From the NCBI GenBank assembly GCA_035544575.1, contig DATKEC010000044.1:2851-66850 (forward strand): a DNA stretch of 64,000 nt. Direction: 5' to 3'. This DNA comes from Acidimicrobiia bacterium (GTDB lineage Bacteria; Actinomycetota; Acidimicrobiia; Spongiisociales; ZC4RG35). The notes under the pieces are model-generated. The model worked only from the letters and a program-made list of their open reading frames with translations, ran no database searches and had not been told where the DNA came from. Both the position numbers and the translations under genes were made by a program. Positions 2,133 to 21,556 of this stretch are shown here, piece after piece. Numbering within the stretch: position 1 is the stretch's first letter; the number at the start of each line of letters is the position of its first letter.

Positions 2133-3752
2133 TCACTCGAACGACATCAGATACGGATAGAGGGGTTGGCCGCCCTCGATCACGACGGTCTCTGCCTGGG
2201 GGTACTCGACATCGATCCAGGTCACCAGAGAGTCGGTCACACCGGGATCGGCTTCGGCGCCCGTGTAGATCGTGATCAACTCGATCGGGGCGGTCATGAT
2301 TCGCCGCACCAGCTTGGTGGTGGCGGACCACGCGTCTGGACCCGCCACGATCGGGGTCCCGTCGACGATCCCCATCCAGTCGCCGCGGGCGATCACTCCG
2401 AGACCGTCGACCTTGGCGTTACGAACCGCCCTGGTCACTTCGGCACTGATGATCGACGATGCGGCAGCCGACATGGTCTGGGCGGCGTCCTCCAGCGACT
2501 CCTCCCCGGTCGAGTACCCCATCATCGCCGCCACGCCTTGCGGAATCGAGCGGGTGGGGACGACCAACACATCCTTTGTCGTCAAAGCGTCGAGTTGTTC
2601 GGCCACGGGAACGATGTTCTTGTTGTTCGGGAGCACGATCACCTTGTCGGCGGGGACGGAATCGACGACGTCGAGGAGATCGTCGGCGCTCGGGTTCATG
2701 GATTGGCCGCCCTTCACGACGCCCTGCACCAGGAGACTGCCGAACAGGGCCGTGAGACCATCGCCGGCAGCCACCGTCACCACGCCAACCGGGGCGACCG
2801 ACGCCTCGAATCTCGCTTCGAACCCCAAGGCCAGCCCGAGCGCGTGACTGCTGGACTGGTCGAGGAGATCGGTCACCTTGATCCCTCGGGGTCGGCCCAC
2901 GGCGATCCCCGCCTCGATGACCGCCCCGATGTGGTCGGTGTGGATGTGACAGTTCCACTCTCCGGCACCTCCGACGACGACGATCGAGTCGCCCAGCTCC
3001 GCCCAGGCTGTCCGCAACCCCGGGATTCCGACGTCGTCTGCGTCGAGGAAGAACATGACCTCGTAGCGAAGATCTGCGACGGCCGGTGGGTCAGAGAGGG
3101 CCGCGAGATCCGCAGACATCGCGCGAACCCGGGGCGGAAGGGAGACGTCGGTGCCAGTTTGGTCCACTACGAAGGCAGCCAGCAGCAGAACCACACCCGC
3201 ACCTCCTGCGTCGACGACTCCCGCTTGGGCCAGCACGGGGAGCATCTCGGGTGTCCGCTCGAGAGCGGACACCGAGCGTCGATACACCGCGGTCAGGAAG
3301 TCCCCCCACGCCATGCCATTGCCGGCAGCCTCGGCGGCTTCCTCGGCGGCTTCCCGGGCGACAGTGAGAATCGTGCCTTCCATCGGCGAGCCCACCTGGG
3401 CATACGCCCGAGCGGCTCCCTCGGCGAGGCCTTCAGCCACCTCCCTCACACCGAGTGTCGTCGCCTGACTGAACGGCACCGTCAACCCCCGCAAGATGAG
3501 GCTCAGGATCAACCCGCTGTTGCCCGTGGCCCCCCGCAGCGAACCGTCCGAGATGGCCCGACAGACCTCCTCCATCGACGTGGCGCCCTCGAGCTGGGCG
3601 TTCACCAGGCGTACGGTTGCCAGCATGTTCGACCCGGTGTCGCCGTCAGGAACGGGATAGACGTTGAGGGCGTTGATCGTGTCCCGATGGACGGTCAACA
3701 GATCCTGGTACCGTGTGAACACCCGCTTGAGGTCGTCCGACGTCATCGTCAT
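2133..3752 (-). CDS. DAK2 domain fusion protein (YloV/FakA fatty-acid kinase family)
   Basis: INALNVYPVPDGDTGSNM, GNSGLILS, GTILTV, GGQSMNPS, GGQPLYPYLMSFE. Start moved to MTMTSDD. Classic rpmB-DAK2-recG context. Confidence 0.93.
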   Translation of the reverse strand: MTMTSDDLKRVFTRYQDLLTVHRDTINALNVYPVPDGDTGSNMLATVRLVNAQLEGATSMEEVCRAISDGSLRGATGNSGLILSLILRGLTVPFSQATTLGVREVAEGLAEGAARAYAQVGSPMEGTILTVAREAAEEAAEAAGNGMAWGDFLTAVYRRSVSALERTPEMLPVLAQAGVVDAGGAGVVLLLAAFVVDQTGTDVSLPPRVRAMSADLAALSDPPAVADLRYEVMFFLDADDVGIPGLRTAWAELGDSIVVVGGAGEWNCHIHTDHIGAVIEAGIAVGRPRGIKVTDLLDQSSSHALGLALGFEARFEASVAPVGVVTVAAGDGLTALFGSLLVQGVVKGGQSMNPSADDLLDVVDSVPADKVIVLPNNKNIVPVAEQLDALTTKDVLVVPTRSIPQGVAAMMGYSTGEESLEDAAQTMSAAASSIISAEVTRAVRNAKVDGLGVIARGDWMGIVDGTPIVAGPDAWSATTKLVRRIMTAPIELITIYTGAEADPGVTDSLVTWIDVEYPQAETVVIEGGQPLYPYLMSFE

Positions 3753-8113: not shown

Positions 8114-9904
8114 ATGCCCTCAGGCCAACAGCCGACCATCAGCACTCTCGTCCGCTTCAGAGCGGCCGCTCTCCGCCGTAGCGTGATGCTCGGTTGGGTG
8201 CTCCTCGTCGTGCTGACGGCAGCCGCGGTACGTACCGACACCTTTCCGGACCGGCGATTCCTCGTCACCGTCGCGATCTTCTTGGTGATCCTGTCACTGG
8301 CGAGCGGCACGGACTGGTCGCGGGTCCTCCGGAAGCCGTACGGGCCGCTGCTGGCGTGGGCGTGGACCATTGCCTTGGTTCTCACTCTCACCGTGATCGC
8401 CACGGTCGAGGGCATGTTCCAGGCGACCCTCCCGATCTTCCCGGGCATCGTGGTGCTCACCGGTCTCATACTCGAACCCGTCCGCCACGTCTTCGTCTCG
8501 GTGCTCACCGCCTTCCTGGTGATCATCGCGGCCTTGGTGACAGCCGAAGCCGACACGTTCGCCGATCTCGTGATTCCCGTCCTGACGATCGGGGTGGTGG
8601 CCGCGGCAACCGCCCTCATCGGCACCGAGTTCGCTCGCGAGGCAAAGATGTCAGCGGCGCAACAAGAAGCCCTCTCCAGCCAGCGCGAGGACTTCCGGCG
8701 CCTGTACGCCGTCTCCACGACACTCGCCGGTGCGGAGTCTCTCGCCGAGGGTCTCCCCGAGATCGTCGGGCGAATCTGTCGCTATGTCGATGCCCAGGTC
8801 GGGGTGGTCTTCCTGTATCGGCCCGAAGACCACACCCTTCGTGTCGTGAGCCCGATGTGGGTGAACGGCCACACCCTCGAAGTCGATGAGATCACCGTGC
8901 GCGTCACGGACGGCAGCATCGTCACCAAGGTCTTCCGCAGCGGAAGGGCGATCCGTTTGGAGCGGATCTTGCAGCGACCCGATCAGTTCGGTGTGCTCGG
9001 AGAACTCGGCATCGACAATGCCATCGTCGCCCCACTCCGCGTCGAGGGCCACAACGTCGGTGTCCTCGCCATCGGCGACCCTGCTGGCGACCCGTTCACC
9101 GATGGCCAGGTGGAGGACGTCTCCTCTTTGGCCGCCCCGGCCGCTTTGGTGCTGTCTCAACTCGGCCGATACGAGGCAGCGGCCGAGATGACCCGGCGCA
9201 TGCGAGAAGTGGCGCAGATGAAGACGGACTTCGTGTCGGTCGTGAGCCACGAGCTGCGCACGCCGCTCACTTCCATCATCGGATCACTCGACACGATCAA
9301 GCGTCCGGGCATCGGCCCCGAAGCAACCGAGGACTTGCTGGAATCGGCTCGCCGTCAAGCCAACCGGTTGCAGAGGCTGATCGAGGATCTCCTGTTTGCG
9401 TCCCGCGTCGACCGTCAAACGATCCCGATCTCGATCCAGCCGGTGCTCGTGCGGGACATGCTCTCCGAGCTCGAGACCACCCATTCCACCAGCCCCCACC
9501 TGAGGATCTCCGTCGAGCCGGTGGACCTGATGGTGGCCGCGGATCCCGACCACCTCCGTCGAGTCTTCATCAATCTCGTGGACAACGCCTCCAAGTACGC
9601 GCCGGACAGCCCGGTCGAAGTCATCGCCCGTGCGGTTCGGTCTCGGATCGACATCGACGTGATCGATCACGGAGACGGGATACCGCCGGAGATGCGGGCG
9701 CGCATCTTCGACGCCTTCACACAACTCGAACGGTCTGAAACCCGCACCAAGGGCGGGACGGGCCTCGGTCTGTCGATCGTGCGCGGGCTGGTCGAGGCGA
9801 TGGGGGGCCAGGTGGTCGTGACTGAGACGCCCGGTGGAGGAGCGACATTCACCATCAGCCTCCCGATGGCTGCCGTCGCCCCCGACCTCATTCCGCTGGC
9901 GTGA
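8114..9904 (+). CDS. Membrane sensor histidine kinase with GAF domain
   Basis: ~5-6 TM segments, GAF-like middle region, SHELRTPL H-box, NLVDNASKY, DHGDGI, GTGLGL. Confidence 0.92.
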   Translation: MPSGQQPTISTLVRFRAAALRRSVMLGWVLLVVLTAAAVRTDTFPDRRFLVTVAIFLVILSLASGTDWSRVLRKPYGPLLAWAWTIALVLTLTVIATVEGMFQATLPIFPGIVVLTGLILEPVRHVFVSVLTAFLVIIAALVTAEADTFADLVIPVLTIGVVAAATALIGTEFAREAKMSAAQQEALSSQREDFRRLYAVSTTLAGAESLAEGLPEIVGRICRYVDAQVGVVFLYRPEDHTLRVVSPMWVNGHTLEVDEITVRVTDGSIVTKVFRSGRAIRLERILQRPDQFGVLGELGIDNAIVAPLRVEGHNVGVLAIGDPAGDPFTDGQVEDVSSLAAPAALVLSQLGRYEAAAEMTRRMREVAQMKTDFVSVVSHELRTPLTSIIGSLDTIKRPGIGPEATEDLLESARRQANRLQRLIEDLLFASRVDRQTIPISIQPVLVRDMLSELETTHSTSPHLRISVEPVDLMVAADPDHLRRVFINLVDNASKYAPDSPVEVIARAVRSRIDIDVIDHGDGIPPEMRARIFDAFTQLERSETRTKGGTGLGLSIVRGLVEAMGGQVVVTETPGGGATFTISLPMAAVAPDLIPLA

Positions 9905-11481: not shown

Positions 11482-12075
11482 TCATCCGTCGAGAAGTCTG
11501 CGCTTCTGGCTCTCGAACTCTTCCTGGCTGAGAATTCCCCGGTCACGGAGTTCGGCCAGTCCGGCGAGCTCGTCGGCAACCGACGATCCACCCCGGCGGA
11601 GTTCCACGGTGCGTTGCTCTCGTTGCTGGTAGATCAACGATTGGAGACCCTCAGGGTCGGGGATGTCCTGGTAGCGGCTCTGGCCCGTCTCACCGGCCGA
11701 CTCGATGACGAGATCGCCTGAGCGGATGAACCGTTCGAGCAGCGATTGACTGAACGCCACGTTCGTGATGCTCTCGAGCGGGATCTCGACACCCGAACGC
11801 GAGAACACACCCGCCCGATAGATCACTCGCTCGTCGGTGATCACGTATTGGGTGGTCGCCCAGTCGGCGACGCGTTTGACGCTGAGGATGATCCAGACGG
11901 CGACCCCGCCCAGAATCAGCAGCCACCGAGCGGCTCCATCGAGCTGGACGACCGCGGCGACGACCACCCCCAGGAGCACCAGGAACAACGCTCCGGGAAG
12001 AATGAGGAACTGCCAGTGGGGCCGAAACTCCTTGACGACCATCTCACCGGGACTCAACAACCGTTTCGGATACAT
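11482..12075 (-). CDS. PH-domain (bPH_2) membrane protein with C-terminal SHOCT
   Basis: MYPKRLLSPGE..RPHW, 2 TM, YVITDERVIYRAGVFSR, IPLESITNV, SHOCT-like DRGILSQEEFESQKRRLL. Leaderless TAGCGT-N7-ATG. Confidence 0.88.
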   Translation of the reverse strand: MYPKRLLSPGEMVVKEFRPHWQFLILPGALFLVLLGVVVAAVVQLDGAARWLLILGGVAVWIILSVKRVADWATTQYVITDERVIYRAGVFSRSGVEIPLESITNVAFSQSLLERFIRSGDLVIESAGETGQSRYQDIPDPEGLQSLIYQQREQRTVELRRGGSSVADELAGLAELRDRGILSQEEFESQKRRLLDG

Positions 12076-12151
12076 GCTCGGGACGCTAGCGGGAGGCACG
12101 TGTCCCGCGACGACGAAGCGCCATCCTCGTGCCGAACCGGCAGATCCAGAC

Positions 12152-12571
12152 GCGAAGAAGCCCCGAGGAAGCTTTGGCTTGCGCCGCCACCCTCTCGGGG
12201 CTCTCCGAGTCATCGGTGCCGCGACCCGTTTCCGGGCCGGCTGCAGCCGAGACAAGCGAGGAATCTTGCGACTCCCCACGTGACGGCCGGTTTCGTCGCC
12301 GAAGCGTCGACCCGTTCCGCCAGACCGCTGAACCGACAGCGAAGCTCGAAACCCGAAGATCCTCACTCACGCCCTCGGCTCAAAGGCCGTTGCGTCTCAA
12401 CCCCCGCCGAAGCGAAGGCCTCAGACGCCCCTCGTACGAGGATGGTGCATCGGTTCCCCGATCCACCCGGAAGCGTCGTTTCCGACCCATCCGTGGTGCG
12501 GACCGCCGACCACGTTCGTCGCCGTCCCGCTCGACCCCTTTCGAGGCCGTGCCACCGATCGCTCGGTGACA
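12152..12571 (-). ncRNA. Putative ~420-nt structured ncRNA (RNA-B), unassigned family
   Basis: About 11 hairpins capped by GNRA/UUCG loops, readable as such only on the minus strand; long-range closing helices; own promoter; 3' hairpin followed by CUUCUUC. Ends are estimates. Confidence 0.72.
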
Positions 12572-12577
12572 GGTGGA

Positions 12578-12654
12578 AAGCTAAACGGTGGGCCAACGAT
12601 CGGGAACCGAATCAGGTCGCCATTTTTTCGCGACGCTCGGTGAGTTTTCGCGAC
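12578..12654 (-). promoter_or_regulatory. Promoter P2 for RNA-B plus upstream direct repeats
   Basis: TTCCCG (12606-12601)-N17-TAGCTT (12583-12578). GTCGCGAAAA twice, at 12625-12634 and 12645-12654. Confidence 0.55.
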
Positions 12655-12711
12655 AAGTCGCTGGTGGCTGGGGAACGCGGCGAGACGCTCATGACCGGGA
12701 CCCCCGAACGC

Positions 12712-12860
12712 GGGAAACCCCGAGAAAGTATCGGCCGAAGCCTCAACCCTCTCGGGGTACCCTGCTGGTCGCACTCCGACCCGAAGGCCGGTCTACACCC
12801 AGCTTCCGAAGGACCCTCTCGGGTTCTTCATCCCTGCTGCGAGGTCGCCCTCGCTTCAGT
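12712..12860 (-). ncRNA. Putative ~150-nt structured ncRNA (RNA-A), short paralog of RNA-B
   Basis: Starts ~7 nt after a strong -10. Hairpins GCGAGG-GCGA-CCUCGC, CCC-GAGA-GGG, CCGGCC-UUCG-GGUCGG. 40-nt 3' domain is 30/40 identical to that of RNA-B. Confidence 0.7.
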
Positions 12861-12867
12861 GATCGGA

Positions 12868-12943
12868 AACCTACGGTCTGATCCGGGTGACGTCAAGGCG
12901 AACAGACGGTGTCTTTTCGCGGTCCGGAGGGAAGTTTCGCGAC
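12868..12943 (-). promoter_or_regulatory. Promoter P1 for RNA-A plus upstream direct repeats
   Basis: TTGACG (12896-12891)-N17-TAGGTT (12873-12868). Repeats ACCGCGAAAA and GTCGCGAAAC at 12914-12923 and 12934-12943. Confidence 0.72.
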
Positions 12944-12944
12944 T

Positions 12945-13784
12945 TCAGCTCGCCACGGCGATCCCCGCGTCTTCGAAGGCGGGACAGATCGCCTGAAACG
13001 AGCACCAATCGCACAGTCGGCCGGGACGCGGCGGAAACCGCTCCTCGCTCATCGCCCGCTCGATGGCGCTCCACAGAGCCCGCAGCTGGCGGTCCATGGC
13101 GTCGAGCTGCTGGTCATCGACCTCGAGGCGGTACATGGTGGGCCCGTTGAGGTACATGAGCCGTAGCTCCCGCGGCGTTTCGCCGGTGCGGCGCCGAACG
13201 AGCAACCCGTAGATCTTCAACGCAAAGAACGCCGGAACCGCGTAACGCTCGGGAGGCGCCTTGCCCGTCTTGTAGTCGGTGATCACCAGCCGACCGTCGG
13301 CACCTCGATCGATCCGATCCAGAATTCCCCGGATGACGATGCCGTCGAGATCCTCGGTCATGTCGAGTTCTCGATCCATCGGCTCGACCTCTGCGGGGTT
13401 CTCCACCGAGAAGTAATTGGCGAGCAGCGTCAGACTCTCCAGGCCCCACTCACGCTCATGGTCGACGGATGCGAACAAGCCGGAGTACTCCTCGTCGGCA
13501 CGCACTTCTGTCCACGCCTGCCGGAAGAGGTCATACAGCATCTCGGGCGTACGCTCGTTGGCATCGAGGTCGAAGAGCCGCTGCAGCGCCAGATGCGCCG
13601 TCGTCCCCCGGGCCTGATAGGCGGTCACCGGCTCTGGGAGCCGGTCGATGCTGCGGAACTTGAACAACTGCGGACAGATCTTGAAATCACTCGCCCGCGA
13701 CGGCGAAAGCCTCTCCAACGACAGGCCCTCCCCGGCCGGTGGCGCAGTCGCCCGGCTGGCGATCGACAGATTCCCAGACTCCAT
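12945..13784 (-). CDS. RecB-family PD-(D/E)XK exonuclease with 4-Cys Fe-S staple
   Basis: LSPSRASDFKICP, RGILDRID, ITDYKTGK, QL-like ALKIYG, LCDWCSFQAICP. Leaderless TAGGGT-N6-ATG. Confidence 0.92.
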   Translation of the reverse strand: MESGNLSIASRATAPPAGEGLSLERLSPSRASDFKICPQLFKFRSIDRLPEPVTAYQARGTTAHLALQRLFDLDANERTPEMLYDLFRQAWTEVRADEEYSGLFASVDHEREWGLESLTLLANYFSVENPAEVEPMDRELDMTEDLDGIVIRGILDRIDRGADGRLVITDYKTGKAPPERYAVPAFFALKIYGLLVRRRTGETPRELRLMYLNGPTMYRLEVDDQQLDAMDRQLRALWSAIERAMSEERFPPRPGRLCDWCSFQAICPAFEDAGIAVAS

Positions 13785-15506: not shown

Positions 15507-18497
15507 TTGTCGACCGTCGTGAGCACCGAGGTACGAATCGGCCCCGATGAGTGGCCGGCGGTGGTCGCCGACACCGACGGGCCTCAGTTGGTGGTGGCTG
15601 GGCCGGGGACGGGCAAAACCGAGTTCTTGGTCCGTCGCATCGTCCATCTGATCGAGTCCGGTGTCGAACCCAGGGCGATCCTCGTGCTCACGTTCTCTCG
15701 CCGGGGGGCGGCGGAGTTGCGAAGCCGGATCTCGAATCGGCTGGCGCGCTCGGCGGGACCCCTCTCGGTGTCGACTTTCCACTCCCTGGCCATCCGTCTG
15801 CTCGAGACCTACGAGGAGCGGCCGACGACGCGGCCTCCACCAACGTTGCTGACAGGACCAGAGCAGGTTTCGCTGGTCGCAGAGCTGCTGGCCGACACGG
15901 ATCCGGCACCGTGGCCCGTCTCGCACCGAGCGATGTTCCGAACGCGCACGTTCGCCGCCGATGTCGCCGACTTCCTCCTGCGCATGGCCGAGCGCAGGAT
16001 CGACTCGGACCGCCTCACAGAGATGGTCCACCGGCGCCCGGATTGGCGTGCCCTACCGGACTTCCGTGATCGCTATCTGCAGACGCTGTCGGAGCGAAAC
16101 CGCGTCGACTACGGAACACTGCTGTCGCGCGCCGTCGACCTGGCGGCGGACCCGGCGGTGTCAGGCCGGCTCCAGACCGACCACCGCTATGTCGTGGTGG
16201 ACGAGTATCAGGACACCTCCCCCGCCCAGGCCGAGCTGCTCGACGTTCTCACGCGAACCCATCGGAACCTGACCGTCGCCGGTGATCCACACCAGTCCAT
16301 CTACAGCTTCCGCGGCGCCGATGTCTCCAACATCGCCCGGTTCTCCGAACGCTTCGTCGGAGTCGACGGGAGTCCCGCCCGACGGATCGTCCTGGACGCC
16401 TCGTTCCGGGTGCCTGCCGCCATCCTCGCCGCGGCGACCCGCGTGACCGCGGGTGCGGGGCTCCCGGGTGAAGCCGGCCCGATCGCACCGGCGCCGCACT
16501 CGGGGTCCGTTCACGTGCATGTCTTCGACCAGGCCTCGGCGGAGGGCGAGTGGGTGGCAGCCGAAGTCGAGAGGCTTCACCTCGTCGAACAGATCCCCTA
16601 CCGGCGCATGGCGGTGCTCGTGCGGTCCACGCGCAACCTCCTCCCGGAGCTGTCAAGGGCCCTCGACCGTCGTCACATCCCCCACGACACACCCGACGTC
16701 CGTCTCGTGGACCATCCCGCCGTCCAACTGATCCTCGACCTGGCCCTCGCTGCCGCCACCGCCTCGTCGGAGGACCCGCTGACCCGCCAGGCCGCCGAGG
16801 CACCGATCCGGCGTGTCCTCCTCGGTCCTCTGTACGGTCTGGGTGTTGCGGCTGAACGAGCGCTGCAGCGGAACCGCTTGCGAACGGACGCGGGTTGGGT
16901 CGAGGCACTCTCGGGCGACCCCGCCACCGCCGACCTGGCCCGGTTGCTGACCGGCGGCGCCTGGGCCACCGAAGCCAGCGCCGTCGACGGGTTCTGGCGG
17001 GTCTGGAACGACCTCGATCGGTTGAGCGCGTTCGCCCTCGAACCGGGCCGGCACGGACATCGCGCGGCGTGGACGGCATTCGCGCAAGTCCTCGAACAGC
17101 AGCATGAGCGCAATCCGGAAGTGAGCCTTCTCCGCTACCGCCAGATGGCCGAGTCCGACGACTTCGAGGCGACTCCTCTGCTCTCGCATCGGACCACCAA
17201 CGACGAACGGATCACACTGACCACGCTGCACCAGGCCAAAGGCCTCGAATTCGACGTCGTGTTCATCGCCGACGCCACCGAAGACGTGTTTCCGGACCTC
17301 CGGCGCGGATTCAATCCGCTCGACCCTCAGGCGCTGGCCGGGCCGGCCGACCGCTCGTCGTGGCTCTTGGAACGCTTGCGCGAGGAGACACGTGTCGCGT
17401 ACACGGCGATGACCAGGGCACGGGCGCGACTTGTCATGACCGCCACCATCGCCGGGATCGACGAGAACGAGCGCCGGCCCAGTCGATTTCTCCTCGCGGC
17501 CGCCGGCGTGGATTCGGTCGACGAGCTCCCGCCCGCACCCTCCAACCGGGATGATCCGCTGACCACGCGGGGCCTCGAGACGGTGCTTCGGCGAGCCCTG
17601 CTCGACCCCCTCCGACCGATGGCGGAACGACTGGCGGCGGCCGCCACATTGGCCGAAGGGTCGCCCGCCTTGTGGGACGCCGAACGTTTCGCCGGCGTTC
17701 GCCAGCCCGGGCCGGATCGCGGCGTGTTCAGCCGACCTCCTCGTCTGTCGCCGAGCCAGGCAGAGTCGTATCAGGAGTGCCCCCGCCGATACGTGTTCGA
17801 GAGGCGCCTGGCGATGACGGACTCCTCGGGAGATCACGCCCGGTTTGGGACCCTGGTCCATGGCGTTCTCGAGCGCGCCGACAACGCGGCGAAGGCGGAG
17901 GCACGACCCCGGCCGACTCTCGGCGACGCCCACGCGGCTCTCGACGACGTGTGGCGAACGGAGGCCGATTTCGGCTCGCCGTGGCTCGACGCGCTCTGGC
18001 GTGGCAAAGCGATCGAACTCCTCGATCGGCTGTTCGCCCAATGGCCCGGAGACAGCCTCGAGACGATCGCCGCCGAACTGAACCTCCACTGGAACGGCGG
18101 TGGGGTCGAGTGGGTTGGCCGCGCCGACAGAATCGAGCGACTCACGGACGGATCGGTCCGAGTGGTCGATTACAAGACGTCGAAGACGATCATGCCCAAG
18201 CACAAGGCGGCGCGTTCGCTCCAACTCGCGTTCTACGCGCTGGCCGCCACCGCCGATCCGGCGATACCGGGACCCGTCGACAGCGCAGAGCTGTGGTATC
18301 CCGCCACCGGACAGGTCGGGTTCCGCCGCTCACTGGACATGTCTCTCCTCGATGAGCTCCGATCCGTTCTCGAGTCCATCGCCGGGTCGATCACGGACGA
18401 GCGGTGGGAGCCGACACCCGGGGAGGCGTGCGATCGATGCTCGGTGCGCATCGTGTGTCCCGAATGGCCCGAAGGCCGAGCCGGGTTCACGGGATGA
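15507..18497 (+). CDS. adnA: AdnA-like UvrD helicase-nuclease subunit (start may be GTG 15519)
   Basis: AGPGTGKT, VDEYQD, GDPHQSIYSFRGA, TLHQAKGLEF, YTAMTRAR. C-terminal GRADRIE..VVDYKT with CP...CDRC...CP. Confidence 0.88.
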   Translation: MSTVVSTEVRIGPDEWPAVVADTDGPQLVVAGPGTGKTEFLVRRIVHLIESGVEPRAILVLTFSRRGAAELRSRISNRLARSAGPLSVSTFHSLAIRLLETYEERPTTRPPPTLLTGPEQVSLVAELLADTDPAPWPVSHRAMFRTRTFAADVADFLLRMAERRIDSDRLTEMVHRRPDWRALPDFRDRYLQTLSERNRVDYGTLLSRAVDLAADPAVSGRLQTDHRYVVVDEYQDTSPAQAELLDVLTRTHRNLTVAGDPHQSIYSFRGADVSNIARFSERFVGVDGSPARRIVLDASFRVPAAILAAATRVTAGAGLPGEAGPIAPAPHSGSVHVHVFDQASAEGEWVAAEVERLHLVEQIPYRRMAVLVRSTRNLLPELSRALDRRHIPHDTPDVRLVDHPAVQLILDLALAAATASSEDPLTRQAAEAPIRRVLLGPLYGLGVAAERALQRNRLRTDAGWVEALSGDPATADLARLLTGGAWATEASAVDGFWRVWNDLDRLSAFALEPGRHGHRAAWTAFAQVLEQQHERNPEVSLLRYRQMAESDDFEATPLLSHRTTNDERITLTTLHQAKGLEFDVVFIADATEDVFPDLRRGFNPLDPQALAGPADRSSWLLERLREETRVAYTAMTRARARLVMTATIAGIDENERRPSRFLLAAAGVDSVDELPPAPSNRDDPLTTRGLETVLRRALLDPLRPMAERLAAAATLAEGSPALWDAERFAGVRQPGPDRGVFSRPPRLSPSQAESYQECPRRYVFERRLAMTDSSGDHARFGTLVHGVLERADNAAKAEARPRPTLGDAHAALDDVWRTEADFGSPWLDALWRGKAIELLDRLFAQWPGDSLETIAAELNLHWNGGGVEWVGRADRIERLTDGSVRVVDYKTSKTIMPKHKAARSLQLAFYALAATADPAIPGPVDSAELWYPATGQVGFRRSLDMSLLDELRSVLESIAGSITDERWEPTPGEACDRCSVRIVCPEWPEGRAGFTG

Positions 18498-21400
18498 CCA
18501 TCACACCCACACCACAACAGGCAGCGGTGGTGACAGCTCCGTTGCAGTCGTTTCGCGTCGCAGCCGGAGCGGGTACCGGCAAGACGACGACGATGGCGAT
18601 GCGCGTGATCGCACTCATCGAACGTCACGGAATCGAACCCGAACAGATCCTCGGCATCACGTTCACCAACAAGGCGGCGGGCGAACTGGCCGAACGTATC
18701 TCCACCTGGATGGGCGACCAGACCGAAGCCGGCCGGGAAGTCGAGGTCCACACGTACCACGGGTTCGCTTCCCAGATCTTGCGGGAGTTCGGCGCCCTGG
18801 TCGGCATCGAGCGTGACACCAAACTCGTCACGCCCACCTTCGCCCGCCAGATCCTCTTCGACGTGGTGCGGGCAGCCGAGATTCGCACCTGGGACCTCTC
18901 GAATCGGCACAACGTCGACAGGGCTGCCAGTTTCGCCGGCCAGTTGGGCGATCACCTCCTCGCACCCGCCGATGTCGTCGTCCCCGACATCGGAGCCGAC
19001 GACGTGTGGCTGAAGCGAGTCGACCTCCTGAACGTTCTTCGCCTCTATGAACGCGAGAAGCGCCGCATGGGGGTGGCCGACTACAGCGACCTCATCACGT
19101 CGGCGTGGCGGGTGGTCTCGGATCACCCCGAGGTGGCAGACGCGATCGTCGAGCGTTACCGGGCCGTCGTGCTGGACGAATACCAGGACACCAATCCCGC
19201 CCAGCGCGAACTGCTGCGCGCCATCTTTTCGAACCGGGTGCCCGTGACAGCCGTCGGCGACGCCGACCAGACGATCTACGAATGGCGAGGCGCGAGCCTG
19301 CAGAACTTCGCCGACTTCGGCCTCCACTTTCCCAACGCGGAAGGACCTGCCCCCTCCCTGCCACTGACGACCAACCGTCGGTCGGGCCAGGCCATCCTGG
19401 ATGTGGCCAACCAGATCAAGGCGAAACTGGCTCCCGACCCGGATCAACTCGAAGCCGTCGAGGGAGTGCCTCCCGGCCGGGTGGTGACGGCATGGTTCGG
19501 CACGGCCGCCGAGGAAGCGGCGTGGATCGCGAGCGAGATCGAACGGCTCGGCGAGGACGGTCTGGCTTGGAGTCAATGCGCGGTGCTGTTCCGCAAGAAC
19601 AAGGACATGGCGATGGTCCACGAAGCCCTCTCCCAACGAGACATCCCCTACGAGGTGGCGAACCTCGGGGGGCTGCTGTCGGTCCCGGAAGTCGCCGACG
19701 TCGTGGCGTGGCTGCGTCTCCTGGCGCGATCGGAGGACACCGTTGCCGTCGTTCGCGTCCTCCAGGGGAGTCGATTCCGTCTGGGTCTCGCCGATCTCGC
19801 CCGGCTGTCGGACTGGGTACGAGAACGCCGGGGCGACATCGCCGACGACATCGACGGGCTGCCCGACTTCACCCTCCTCGAAGCCATCGACCATCTCGAC
19901 CACGTCCAAGGCCTTCGAGCGGACGCCCGGCGGGCGCTGGTTCAGTTTCGCGGCGAGCACGCCGAGTTTCTCGGCATCAGCCAGGGATCCTCACTGGTGG
20001 AGATCTGTCGGAGCATCCTCGATCGAACCGGAGCATGGCAGGACATCGAGGCGATGCCGCGAGCGGCAGGGCTCTCCGCCCGTCTCAACCTCTTCCGCTT
20101 CCTCGATCTCGCCGAGAGTTGGAGCCCGCTCGAGGGGCGACCCTCGCTGGCCGCTTTCACGTCGTATCTCGACCTGATGCACGACAACCCGCGCGAAGAA
20201 CTCGACACCGCCCGCGTCTCCCAAGCCGATGCCGTCACGTTGATCACCGTCCACCGAGCGAAGGGCCTCGAGTGGGAGGCCGTGTTCCTCCCCGCCGCCT
20301 ATCGGACCAACTTCCCGGCGGGCTACCGCGGGGACGATCCGTACACCAGCCCGGACATCCTCCCGTTCGAGTTTCGGCTCGATCGCGATTCGCTGCCCGC
20401 CATCGACGCCACCACCGACAAGTCCGAGCGAAACGAAGCGCTGCGCCAGCGTCACGAGGACTCGGAGTGGCGGCTCGCCTACGTCGCCACGACTCGAGCC
20501 CGCCAACATCTCACGGTCACGGGAGCGTGGTGGTACGGCCATCCGATACCGCTCACGAAACCCACGCAACCCTCTGAGTTCTTCGACGTGTGCAGAACGC
20601 GCGGTGAACACGTACGGGACACACCCGAGCCGCCCGACCGACCAGTCCGAGCGTCGTATCGCAGTGAGTCCGCCGCGCCGGATCCCGGCTTCGAACACGG
20701 GTGGGCCGACGCCCTTCGGAACACGCTGTCCGATCCGGACTGGCCGCGCGTCGAGGCCGCGAGGCGCGGGTTGGCCGACTCCTACGATGCGGCGGTGGCA
20801 GGGTTCCAAGACCGCCTGTTCGCCCTCCCCGATCCGCCGGTGGACTCGACGCACACCGACGTCGTGACGTCGGCGACCGGATTGGTCACCTACGCAACCT
20901 GCCCCCAGCGCTACCACTGGACCTTCGTCGACACCCTCCCTCGCCGCTCGTCACAGGCGGCACGGCGCGGGACCGACGTCCATCGCCGCATCGAACTCCA
21001 CAACCTCGGCGTGATGCCGCTGGAGGAGCTCTCCGAAACCAGCTATGACCTGGTGGCAGACGGCGACGAGCCTGCCGGCACCAACCCCTTCGGCGTGTTC
21101 GAAGCCACCCGGTACGCGCACACTCCGCCCATACTCACCGAGGTCCCCTTCGAACTGGGTCGCGGCGCCGGACGAGTCAGGGGACGCATCGACGCCGTCT
21201 ACGCCGCACCCGACGACGGATGGGAGATCGTCGACTTCAAGTCCGGCAGGGAACGCCCCGACGGTGCCAACCTCGTCCAGCTCGAGGCATATGCCCTGGC
21301 TGCGGCAGACCGGAGCCTGGGCCGTGCTGCTCCGGCACACATCTCGGTGTCGTTCGTCTATCTCGGCGGCACCGAACCCGCGGTCCGGAACCACGTAGTC

Positions 21401-21556
21401 GACGAGCGATGGCTCGAGGACGCAGGGACACGGATCGACGGCATCCTCGAGGGAATCCGAGACGGGCGGTTTCAGACGACGCCGTCAGAGGCCTGCCGGC
21501 GGTGTGACTTTCTCCGCTTCTGTCGGGACGGCTCTGACTTCGTCCGCCGTCAATGA
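18494..21556 (+). CDS. adnB: AdnB-like UvrD helicase-nuclease subunit
   Basis: ATGA overlap with adnA. AGAGTGKT, TFTNKAA, LDEYQDT, GDADQTIYEWRGA, TVHRAKGLEW, YVATTRAR. GRIDAVY..IVDFKSG with CP...CRRC...C. Confidence 0.9.
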   Translation: MTITPTPQQAAVVTAPLQSFRVAAGAGTGKTTTMAMRVIALIERHGIEPEQILGITFTNKAAGELAERISTWMGDQTEAGREVEVHTYHGFASQILREFGALVGIERDTKLVTPTFARQILFDVVRAAEIRTWDLSNRHNVDRAASFAGQLGDHLLAPADVVVPDIGADDVWLKRVDLLNVLRLYEREKRRMGVADYSDLITSAWRVVSDHPEVADAIVERYRAVVLDEYQDTNPAQRELLRAIFSNRVPVTAVGDADQTIYEWRGASLQNFADFGLHFPNAEGPAPSLPLTTNRRSGQAILDVANQIKAKLAPDPDQLEAVEGVPPGRVVTAWFGTAAEEAAWIASEIERLGEDGLAWSQCAVLFRKNKDMAMVHEALSQRDIPYEVANLGGLLSVPEVADVVAWLRLLARSEDTVAVVRVLQGSRFRLGLADLARLSDWVRERRGDIADDIDGLPDFTLLEAIDHLDHVQGLRADARRALVQFRGEHAEFLGISQGSSLVEICRSILDRTGAWQDIEAMPRAAGLSARLNLFRFLDLAESWSPLEGRPSLAAFTSYLDLMHDNPREELDTARVSQADAVTLITVHRAKGLEWEAVFLPAAYRTNFPAGYRGDDPYTSPDILPFEFRLDRDSLPAIDATTDKSERNEALRQRHEDSEWRLAYVATTRARQHLTVTGAWWYGHPIPLTKPTQPSEFFDVCRTRGEHVRDTPEPPDRPVRASYRSESAAPDPGFEHGWADALRNTLSDPDWPRVEAARRGLADSYDAAVAGFQDRLFALPDPPVDSTHTDVVTSATGLVTYATCPQRYHWTFVDTLPRRSSQAARRGTDVHRRIELHNLGVMPLEELSETSYDLVADGDEPAGTNPFGVFEATRYAHTPPILTEVPFELGRGAGRVRGRIDAVYAAPDDGWEIVDFKSGRERPDGANLVQLEAYALAAADRSLGRAAPAHISVSFVYLGGTEPAVRNHVVDERWLEDAGTRIDGILEGIRDGRFQTTPSEACRRCDFLRFCRDGSDFVRRQ

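Follow-up and report, generated by a model that had tools for sequence, protein, structure and literature searches.

Results

Two RNA units in one intergenic gap

The window analyzed here is a 64,000-nt stretch of contig DATKEC010000044.1 (GenBank assembly GCA_035544575.1), and its host class is Acidimicrobiia, based upon the names of its closest proteins and the genomes fetched for comparison. The subject of this report is two predicted noncoding RNA (ncRNA) genes, RNA-A and RNA-B, which fill an 870-nt gap with a RecB-like nuclease gene upstream and a bPH_2/SHOCT membrane protein gene downstream. All RNA features of the gap lie on the minus strand. The two RNAs and their 3' hairpins are:

12860-12708, minus strand: RNA-A, ~153 nt, with four stems, P1 (GCGA loop), P2 (GAGA loop), P3 (UUCG loop) and P4 (the 3' hairpin)
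12757-12718, minus strand: 3' hairpin of RNA-A, UUCG loop, sequence CCCCGAGAGGGTTGAGGCTTCGGCCGATACTTTCTCGGGG (DNA letters CCCCGAGAGGGUUGAGGCUUCGGCCGAUACUUUCUCGGGG), followed by UUUCCCGCG
12570-12151, minus strand: RNA-B, ~420 nt, with about 12 hairpins
12200-12161, minus strand: 3' hairpin of RNA-B, GCAA loop, sequence CCCCGAGAGGGTGGCGGCGCAAGCCAAAGCTTCCTCGGGG (DNA letters CCCCGAGAGGGUGGCGGCGCAAGCCAAAGCUUCCUCGGGG), followed by CUUCUUCGCG

The two 40-nt hairpins were recounted by hand and are identical at 30 of 40 positions, with the outer stem preserved and the loop exchanged (UUCG vs. GCAA). A degenerate pattern of this 40-mer matched the 64 kb twice, at just these two sites, where 100 shuffles gave an expectation of 0.00 matches. 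The hairpin that precedes each 40-mer is also alike, reading ...CCGGCC-UUCG-GGUCGG... in RNA-A and ...CCGGCCCG-GAAA-CGGGUCG... in RNA-B, and each RNA begins with a GCGA-capped hairpin (GCGAGG-GCGA-CCUCGC and CACCGA-GCGA-UCGGUG). These likenesses had been recorded in an initial annotation of the stretch, which took them for the marks of duplicated ncRNA genes of ~150 and ~420 nt with a common 3' domain, the longer one carrying ~270 nt of additional core. The promoter and terminator positions given below fit discrete minus-strand genes of those lengths.

Promoters, upstream boxes and transcript limits

A scan of the region for E. coli-type promoters and terminators called no promoter, and its terminator call was the inner stem of the RNA-A hairpin alone. 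The RNA promoters are instead visible because they are conserved among relatives. An alignment of 44 RNA-A relatives with their upstream DNA (alignment A2) has a single order of elements: CGCGAAA, 13-14 nt, CGCGAAA, ~18 nt, CTTGACG, 17-18 nt, TACNTT, ~7 nt and then the RNA. The proximal CGCGAAA box never varies and the distal one rarely does, while the spacing of CTTGACG and TACNTT is fixed. In the window these elements are:

12941-12935 and 12921-12915, minus strand: twin upstream boxes of RNA-A, CGCGAAA and CGCGAAA with 13 nt between them (from the sequence and the 44 aligned relatives)
12896-12891 and 12873-12868, minus strand: RNA-A promoter, -35 TTGACG, 17-nt spacer and -10 TAGGTT (from conservation)
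12652-12646 and 12632-12626, minus strand: twin upstream boxes of RNA-B, CGCGAAA and CGCGAAA with 13 nt between them
12583-12578, minus strand: -10 element of RNA-B, TAGCTT, in the same alignment column as the -10 of RNA-A

Ahead of both RNAs, then, twin boxes 20-21 bp apart are followed at equal spacing by a TAG(G/C)TTTCC -10 element. The -35 of RNA-B is weak (TTCCCG-like); among relatives, B-type units carry either TTGCGG or TTGCAG, together with TACNTT. From its promoter position RNA-A would start at ~12860, the boundary also chosen in the initial annotation. The -10 of RNA-B shares an alignment column with that of RNA-A, and the predicted start of RNA-B is therefore ~12570. Across 771 kb (the window and its relatives) we counted 130 box pairs, every one of them within an RNA unit. 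A literature search for a CGCGAAA direct-repeat operator gave nothing relevant.

At its 3' end each unit has the 40-nt hairpin and then UUUCU(C)GCG. A strong hairpin with a conserved UUUCU tail would suit a role in termination, but the tail is short. The sequence that follows the hairpin (12708-12717 and 12151-12160; 115 copies), UUUCUCGCG, is conserved past the U tract, and its opposite strand reads CGCGAGAAA, which is close to the CGCGAAA promoter box.

Structure of the two RNAs

Folding of RNA-A and RNA-B was compared with that of shuffled sequences and gave z = -6.5 and z = -7.1, respectively. In 16 window-type sequences the four-stem fold of RNA-A comprises 51 pairs, with 88.7% of cells paired and compensatory (both-side) changes at 29 of the 51. 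None of 500 shuffles reached the observed covariation values, and when the pairing partner was shifted by 1-3 columns as a control, just 38-57% of cells could pair. A consensus of RNA-B with three close relatives has 129 pairs, 22 of them compensatory. Hairpin loops of the GNRA or UNCG type close all four hairpins of RNA-A and 10 of 12 in RNA-B, where mononucleotide shuffles led us to expect 0.08 and 0.29; the opposite strand has none. Covariation, tetraloops, strand asymmetry and folding z-scores argue for selection at the RNA level on the minus strand.

A covariance model built from RNA-A relatives (R1) scores RNA-A at 151 bits, and it also finds an RNA-A-like module in RNA-B:

12310-12151, minus strand: the last 160 nt of RNA-B, an RNA-A-like module (model R1, 47.7 bits, E = 2.8e-10)

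This match runs from the first to the last position of the model, with P1, P2 and P4 displayed and the middle 46 positions, including P3, not displayed. A weaker internal match lies at 12496-12342 (E = 0.03), and across the window the model returned nothing better than E = 0.1 outside the RNA-A/RNA-B interval. The initial annotation had called RNA-A a compact paralog of RNA-B, and the module at the 3' end of RNA-B bears this out. Its shared 3' domain likewise stands, although the sharing is not confined to that domain, since both RNAs also have the GNRA-capped 5' hairpin and all of the promoter architecture in common. From the shared promoter, the shared 5' hairpin and the R1 match, RNA-B appears to be made of fused or expanded RNA-A-like modules. 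With RNA-B as the query, nhmmer gave confident matches in three relatives alone (L001, L002 and L004). The alignment of 43 B-type sequences is trustworthy at its 5' and 3' ends alone.

Conservation of the 3' hairpin

We compared 115 distinct copies of the 3' hairpin. CCCGAGAGGG and CUCGGG are essentially invariant, and several irregular pairs recur within the helix. Position 8 stands opposite position 33 as an A.C mismatch in 83 of the 115 copies and position 10 opposite position 31 as a G.U in 114, while the tandem G.A/A.G of positions 14-15 opposite 26-27 occurs as G.A in 81 and as A.G in 60. The three pairs under the loop covary freely (GGC/GCC, GAC/GUC, UGC/GCA and AAC/GUA). Pairing is possible between the UUUCU tail and a GAGAG stretch ahead of the hairpin. 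Because sequence is conserved within a helix and non-Watson-Crick pairs are fixed there, the comparison suggests that the hairpin is more than a terminator and may be a site of protein or tertiary contact.

Distribution and copy number of the family

For comparison, 80 species-level Acidimicrobiia genomes were fetched by way of the nuclease gene. The hairpin pattern occurs in 141 copies over the window and 71 of the 80 loci; a single copy was found in 16 loci, while 51 have two, 2 have four and 3 have five. The covariance model found the RNA in 77 of the 80 species genomes (~146 hits, E < 1e-8); the four loci that it missed have scarcely any sequence upstream, or none. The hairpin pattern is also present in at least 120 metagenome contigs, most of them with the same neighboring genes. 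The lengths of the RNAs cluster at ~150, ~235, 270 and 330-440 nt per unit and extend up to ~590 nt.

The possibility raised in the initial annotation as fatal to its own proposal, that the 40-mer is a dispersed terminator or repetitive extragenic palindrome (REP)-like repeat, could be examined directly in these genomes, and we consider it together with the related reading that the region is protein-coding. The hairpin is near-palindromic and matches both strands, and long open reading frames (ORFs) cross the region, one of them at 11746-12996 on the plus strand (416 aa). The 64-kb window holds only the two copies, however, and all 141 pattern copies in the ~770 kb of window and genome loci belong to RNA units within a single intergenic zone. 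With few exceptions, the metagenome copies from other gene contexts are still part of an RNA-A-type unit. The compensatory changes, tetraloops and strand asymmetry argue for RNA, and a small ORF inside RNA-A is not preserved in L001 or L004. A dispersed repeat or a coding region is thus scarcely credible here. The long ORFs across the RNA genes (that at 11746-12996 and a second one at 11482-12366 on the minus strand, 294 aa) look like artefacts of high GC content, and with such spurious ORFs over the 870-nt gap, automatic annotation could call hypothetical proteins there.

Short palindromic elements of G/C runs, e.g. GAGGGGGGACGACCCCCCTC, are repeated just downstream of RNA-B in L072 (~3150-3360) and also in L044, L055, L029 and L034. 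These appear to be a genuine dispersed repeat of the REP type, distinct from the 40-mer.

Three other kinds of repeated unit were considered and, on their anatomy alone, rejected. The 300-1300 nt spacing is too wide for an array of clustered regularly interspaced short palindromic repeats (CRISPR), integron cassettes are contradicted by the lack of an integrase and by the noncoding units, and the units are far too long for the repeats of type III toxin-antitoxin systems.

Arrays of four to five near-identical units occur in L047, L048, L051, L059 and L062. In the five-unit arrays of L048 (3047-4874), L051 (3027-4668) and L059 (3114-4952), several units are nearly identical, including their promoters, which indicates probable recent tandem amplification. 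In L054, L055 and L076 the RNA-A unit alone is inverted. The initial annotation had also suggested a two-RNA system, and a fixed one does not hold, as relatives carry one, two, four or five copies, lone units occur elsewhere and units invert independently.

A second form of RNA-A was seen within alignment A2 (type II; L020:4737-4986, L022, L012, L043 and ~25 other loci). It has its own P2 and P3 in place of those of the window, with P2 capped by UUCG and P3 bearing an invariant 11-nt loop, GGGCCCGCUUU, that contains the self-complementary GGGCCC. This loop could be a kissing-loop or a seed.

Loops of this kind bear on the main rival explanation, which holds that the units are base-pairing small RNAs (sRNAs) of the LhrC, Qrr or 6C kind, driven by one regulator and pairing with mRNAs through C/U-rich loops. 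A tandem multi-copy array with a shared upstream site and own terminators would suit such sRNAs, and so would the invariant open loops in relatives, namely GGGCCCGCUUU in type II RNA-A and UCCCCGG in most B-type units. The two RNAs of the window, however, leave few nucleotides unpaired, and GNRA or UNCG tetraloops cap 14 of their 16 hairpins. Type I RNA-A, the form found in the window, lacks the conserved open loops, so the family as a whole has no common seed, and the larger forms of 420-600 nt with ~12 hairpins are atypical for seed-type sRNAs. We therefore regard base pairing as a possible but rather unlikely main function.

Searches of Rfam 15 gave no match to RNA-A or RNA-B when the whole window was searched at the gathering score, and four unrelated hits alone when the RNA region was searched at E up to 10. 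Searches of 13 syntenic relatives and 20 contigs with other gene contexts returned nothing but tRNAs and noise.

Gene contexts

The genes that flank the two RNAs in the window are:

13784-12945, minus strand: RecB-like PD-(D/E)XK nuclease gene, the upstream neighbor (Pfam PF12705, E = 2.9e-36)
12075-11482, minus strand: gene of a membrane protein with bPH_2 and SHOCT domains (Pfam PF03703 and PF09851), the downstream neighbor; ATG at 12075, and 11482..12088 when its -10 element is included

Beyond them lie a gene for a FabI-type (enoyl-ACP) reductase, a glutamate dehydrogenase gene and two long ORFs at 15507-18497 and 18404-21556, which, judged from the sequence alone, resemble the AdnA/AdnB helicase-nuclease pair. 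The usual gene order among relatives is FabI, membrane protein, bPH_2/SHOCT, RNA-B, RNA-A, nuclease (pointing away), glutamate dehydrogenase and the AdnA/AdnB-like genes. In most relatives the nuclease gene and the RNA array are divergent, on opposite strands. The window, L001, L002 and L004 have the nuclease gene on the RNA strand; this is their sole difference from the usual order and amounts to a local inversion of a single gene.

A plus-strand ORF at 8114-9904 (596 aa), next to FabI in this neighborhood, is conserved and has no response-regulator gene beside it. Judged from the translation alone, its C-terminal half is histidine-kinase-like, with an H-box-like SHELRTPL, and there are hydrophobic stretches toward the N-terminus.

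The close spacing of RNA-B and the bPH_2/SHOCT gene could also be explained by a cis-acting leader or attenuator of that gene within one long transcript, as in many loci 50-120 nt separate the RNA-B hairpin from the start of bPH_2, which lies downstream on the same strand. The gene appears to have a promoter of its own. A -10-like TAGCGT (12088-12083, minus strand) stands 7 nt before the ATG with no Shine-Dalgarno sequence, and a TANNNT element (TAGCCT, TACCCT or TACGCT) recurs 6-8 nt before the bPH_2 ATG in many relatives. This conserved -10 argues against a leader, since it indicates that the bPH_2/SHOCT mRNA is probably leaderless. In many genomes, L008, L010, L040 and L048 among them, other genes follow the array, or bPH_2 is missing or lies at a distance of 1-2 kb; the RNA also occurs in unrelated contexts that have no bPH_2 gene, and no riboswitch in Rfam matches it. 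On this evidence a leader function is very improbable.

Among the metagenome contigs listed, ~25 have other neighbors, such as a luciferase-like oxidoreductase with a methyltransferase, or a tRNA gene with rpoD and dnaG. In all but four of these copies a window-type RNA-A is recognizable by its P1, the CCGAGAGG loop, AGA-hairpin-GGAGU and its 3' hairpin; the four, in L090, L133, L184 and L196, have different upstream cores. Where enough upstream sequence is available, the box pair is present in most of these copies and is often slightly degenerate. In L142 (5150-9308; the same sequence occurs in L097 and L136), a lone RNA-A-type gene lies by a tRNA gene, ~1 kb from rpoD-dnaG, in place of the nuclease/bPH_2 context. 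The RpoD of L142, the one contig of this group tested for taxonomy, is identical to that of an Acidimicrobiia genome at NCBI. Because the same RNA and boxes persist in other gene contexts, the RNA family appears to be autonomous, tied to neither neighbor, and restricted to Acidimicrobiia as far as seen.

Discussion

RNA-A and RNA-B are best explained as two neighboring genes of an apparently uncatalogued, Acidimicrobiia-wide family of ncRNAs that act in trans, bind protein, are regulated together and depend on dosage, an explanation that we favor with moderate confidence. The comparison among relatives shows each unit, as predicted from sequence, to be a self-contained cassette of twin boxes, -35/-10 promoter, GNRA-capped 5' hairpin, variable core (giving RNAs of ~150-600 nt) and 3' hairpin with a U-rich tail. 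It likewise shows these putative cassettes in one to five tandem copies, inverted independently of one another and present away from this locus. We read the units as discrete genes because each has its own conserved promoter and boxes, because all 130 box pairs fall in units and because units invert independently.

In the proposed mechanism, a dedicated DNA-binding factor would recognize the twin boxes, whose centers near -58 and -78 are two helical turns apart on the same face of the helix, and through them one regulator could switch on all copies together. Transcription would stop at the 3' hairpin, which, with its A.C, G.U and tandem G.A pairs, might also be a protein recognition site. The RNAs, as stable particles locked by tetraloops, would then bind or titrate a protein in trans, with copy number setting the dose.

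Several points weigh against this proposal. No conserved partner gene accompanies the RNA, and no candidate regulator or binding protein was found. The argument for protein binding draws solely on the irregularities of the 3' hairpin and on the near absence of free loops, while type II RNA-A and most B-type relatives keep the open loops GGGCCCGCUUU and UCCCCGG, possible base-pairing seeds. RNA starts, ends and termination are all predicted, and the short U-tail (UUUCU) may leave some read-through into the next unit.

A more specific proposal is a novel ribonucleoprotein or decoy RNA peculiar to Acidimicrobiia, whose 3' hairpin would dock a protein, conceivably RNA polymerase or another core machine, so that it would stand in for Ms1 or 6S RNA with its dose set by the twin-box regulator and by amplification. 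We hold this to be a speculative possibility of rather low probability.

Soils, sediments, fresh water and the sea all harbor abundant Acidimicrobiia. Most members of the class have not been cultured, and little of their RNA biology has been explored. An RNA conserved throughout the class, with unusually clean covariation, is a candidate addition to Rfam. Amplification to five near-identical copies suggests that the favored trans-acting RNAs act by amount. If it is true that they titrate a central protein, the family would be a lineage-specific global regulator, and should the RNAs prove to bind RNA polymerase or a similar core machine, its importance would be much greater. The box pair, found ahead of these RNAs alone in ~770 kb, offers a handle for seeking a new pair of regulator and site.

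Comparison with known systems

The RNA polymerase core-binding RNA of Actinomycetia, Ms1 (MTS2823 / scr3559), was named in the initial annotation as loosely similar to the start of RNA-A. Both are actinobacterial, highly structured and intergenic, with short 5' and 3' hairpins. An Acidimicrobiia counterpart of Ms1 or 6S RNA that binds RNA polymerase would be in keeping with the host, with the bPH_2 gene directly downstream of RNA-B and with the one lineage in which the RNA lies ~1 kb from rpoD and dnaG. Additional hairpins stand at the 5' and 3' ends of Ms1, and one of the neighbors used to locate it in Cellulomonas-type genomes goes by the synteny phrase "PH domain-containing protein" (PMC9130861). 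The synteny described for Ms1 places a HAD-IB hydrolase, Ssd or CpaE gene on one side and an oxidoreductase, PH-domain or other gene on the other. Here the bPH_2 gene is adjacent to RNA-B, a lead towards Ms1 at the level of the domain name, and neither an HAD-IB hydrolase nor Ssd flanks the array; the second neighbor is a RecB-like nuclease. Although Rfam holds Ms1 candidates (PMC9130861), there was no match to it even at E up to 10, and comparison with the S. coelicolor Ms1 verified by rapid amplification of cDNA ends (RACE), using blastn and nhmmer, gave nothing meaningful. The ~230-300 nt rod with a central bubble that characterizes Ms1 is absent, as in the folds that covariation supports one local hairpin follows another (four stems in RNA-A and ~12 hairpins in RNA-B) with no closing rod or central bubble, even though 5' and 3' hairpins are present. 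The one to five tandem copies and the lengths of 150-600 nt are also unlike Ms1. 6S RNA, with its ~180-nt closing stem, central bubble and terminal stem, finds no counterpart either, there being no Rfam hit and no long-range rod pairing. The proposed resemblance to Ms1 is supported by neither sequence nor fold, and a counterpart of Ms1 or 6S RNA is improbable.

The arrangement of the units is nearer to that of regulator-driven tandem sRNA families, in kind and not by homology, with an own promoter, a shared upstream site, an own terminator and a variable copy number. Multi-copy sRNAs of this sort include RsmX/Y/Z under GacA, Qrr1-5 under LuxO, LhrC1-5 under LisR and the csRNAs under CiaR. Their paralogs are often in tandem, each with its promoter, conserved regulator site and terminator, and their copy number varies by species; by analogy, the varying copy number of the Acidimicrobiia units points to a possible dosage effect. 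These known sRNAs expose single-stranded motifs (GGA, UCCC or a seed), whereas the RNAs described here have closed tetraloops, a long, irregular shared hairpin and members of 400-600 nt.

The family also resembles the orphan RNAs raiA motif, ROOL, GOLLD and OLE, which have many hairpins, are rich in GNRA loops, covary strongly and have no established function. The raiA motif is also present in Acidimicrobiia (PMC10861870), and was set aside here as it gave no Rfam hit. Unlike these four RNAs, none of which was matched through Rfam, the RNA-A/RNA-B family is modular and variable in size, forms tandem arrays and carries a promoter box pair.

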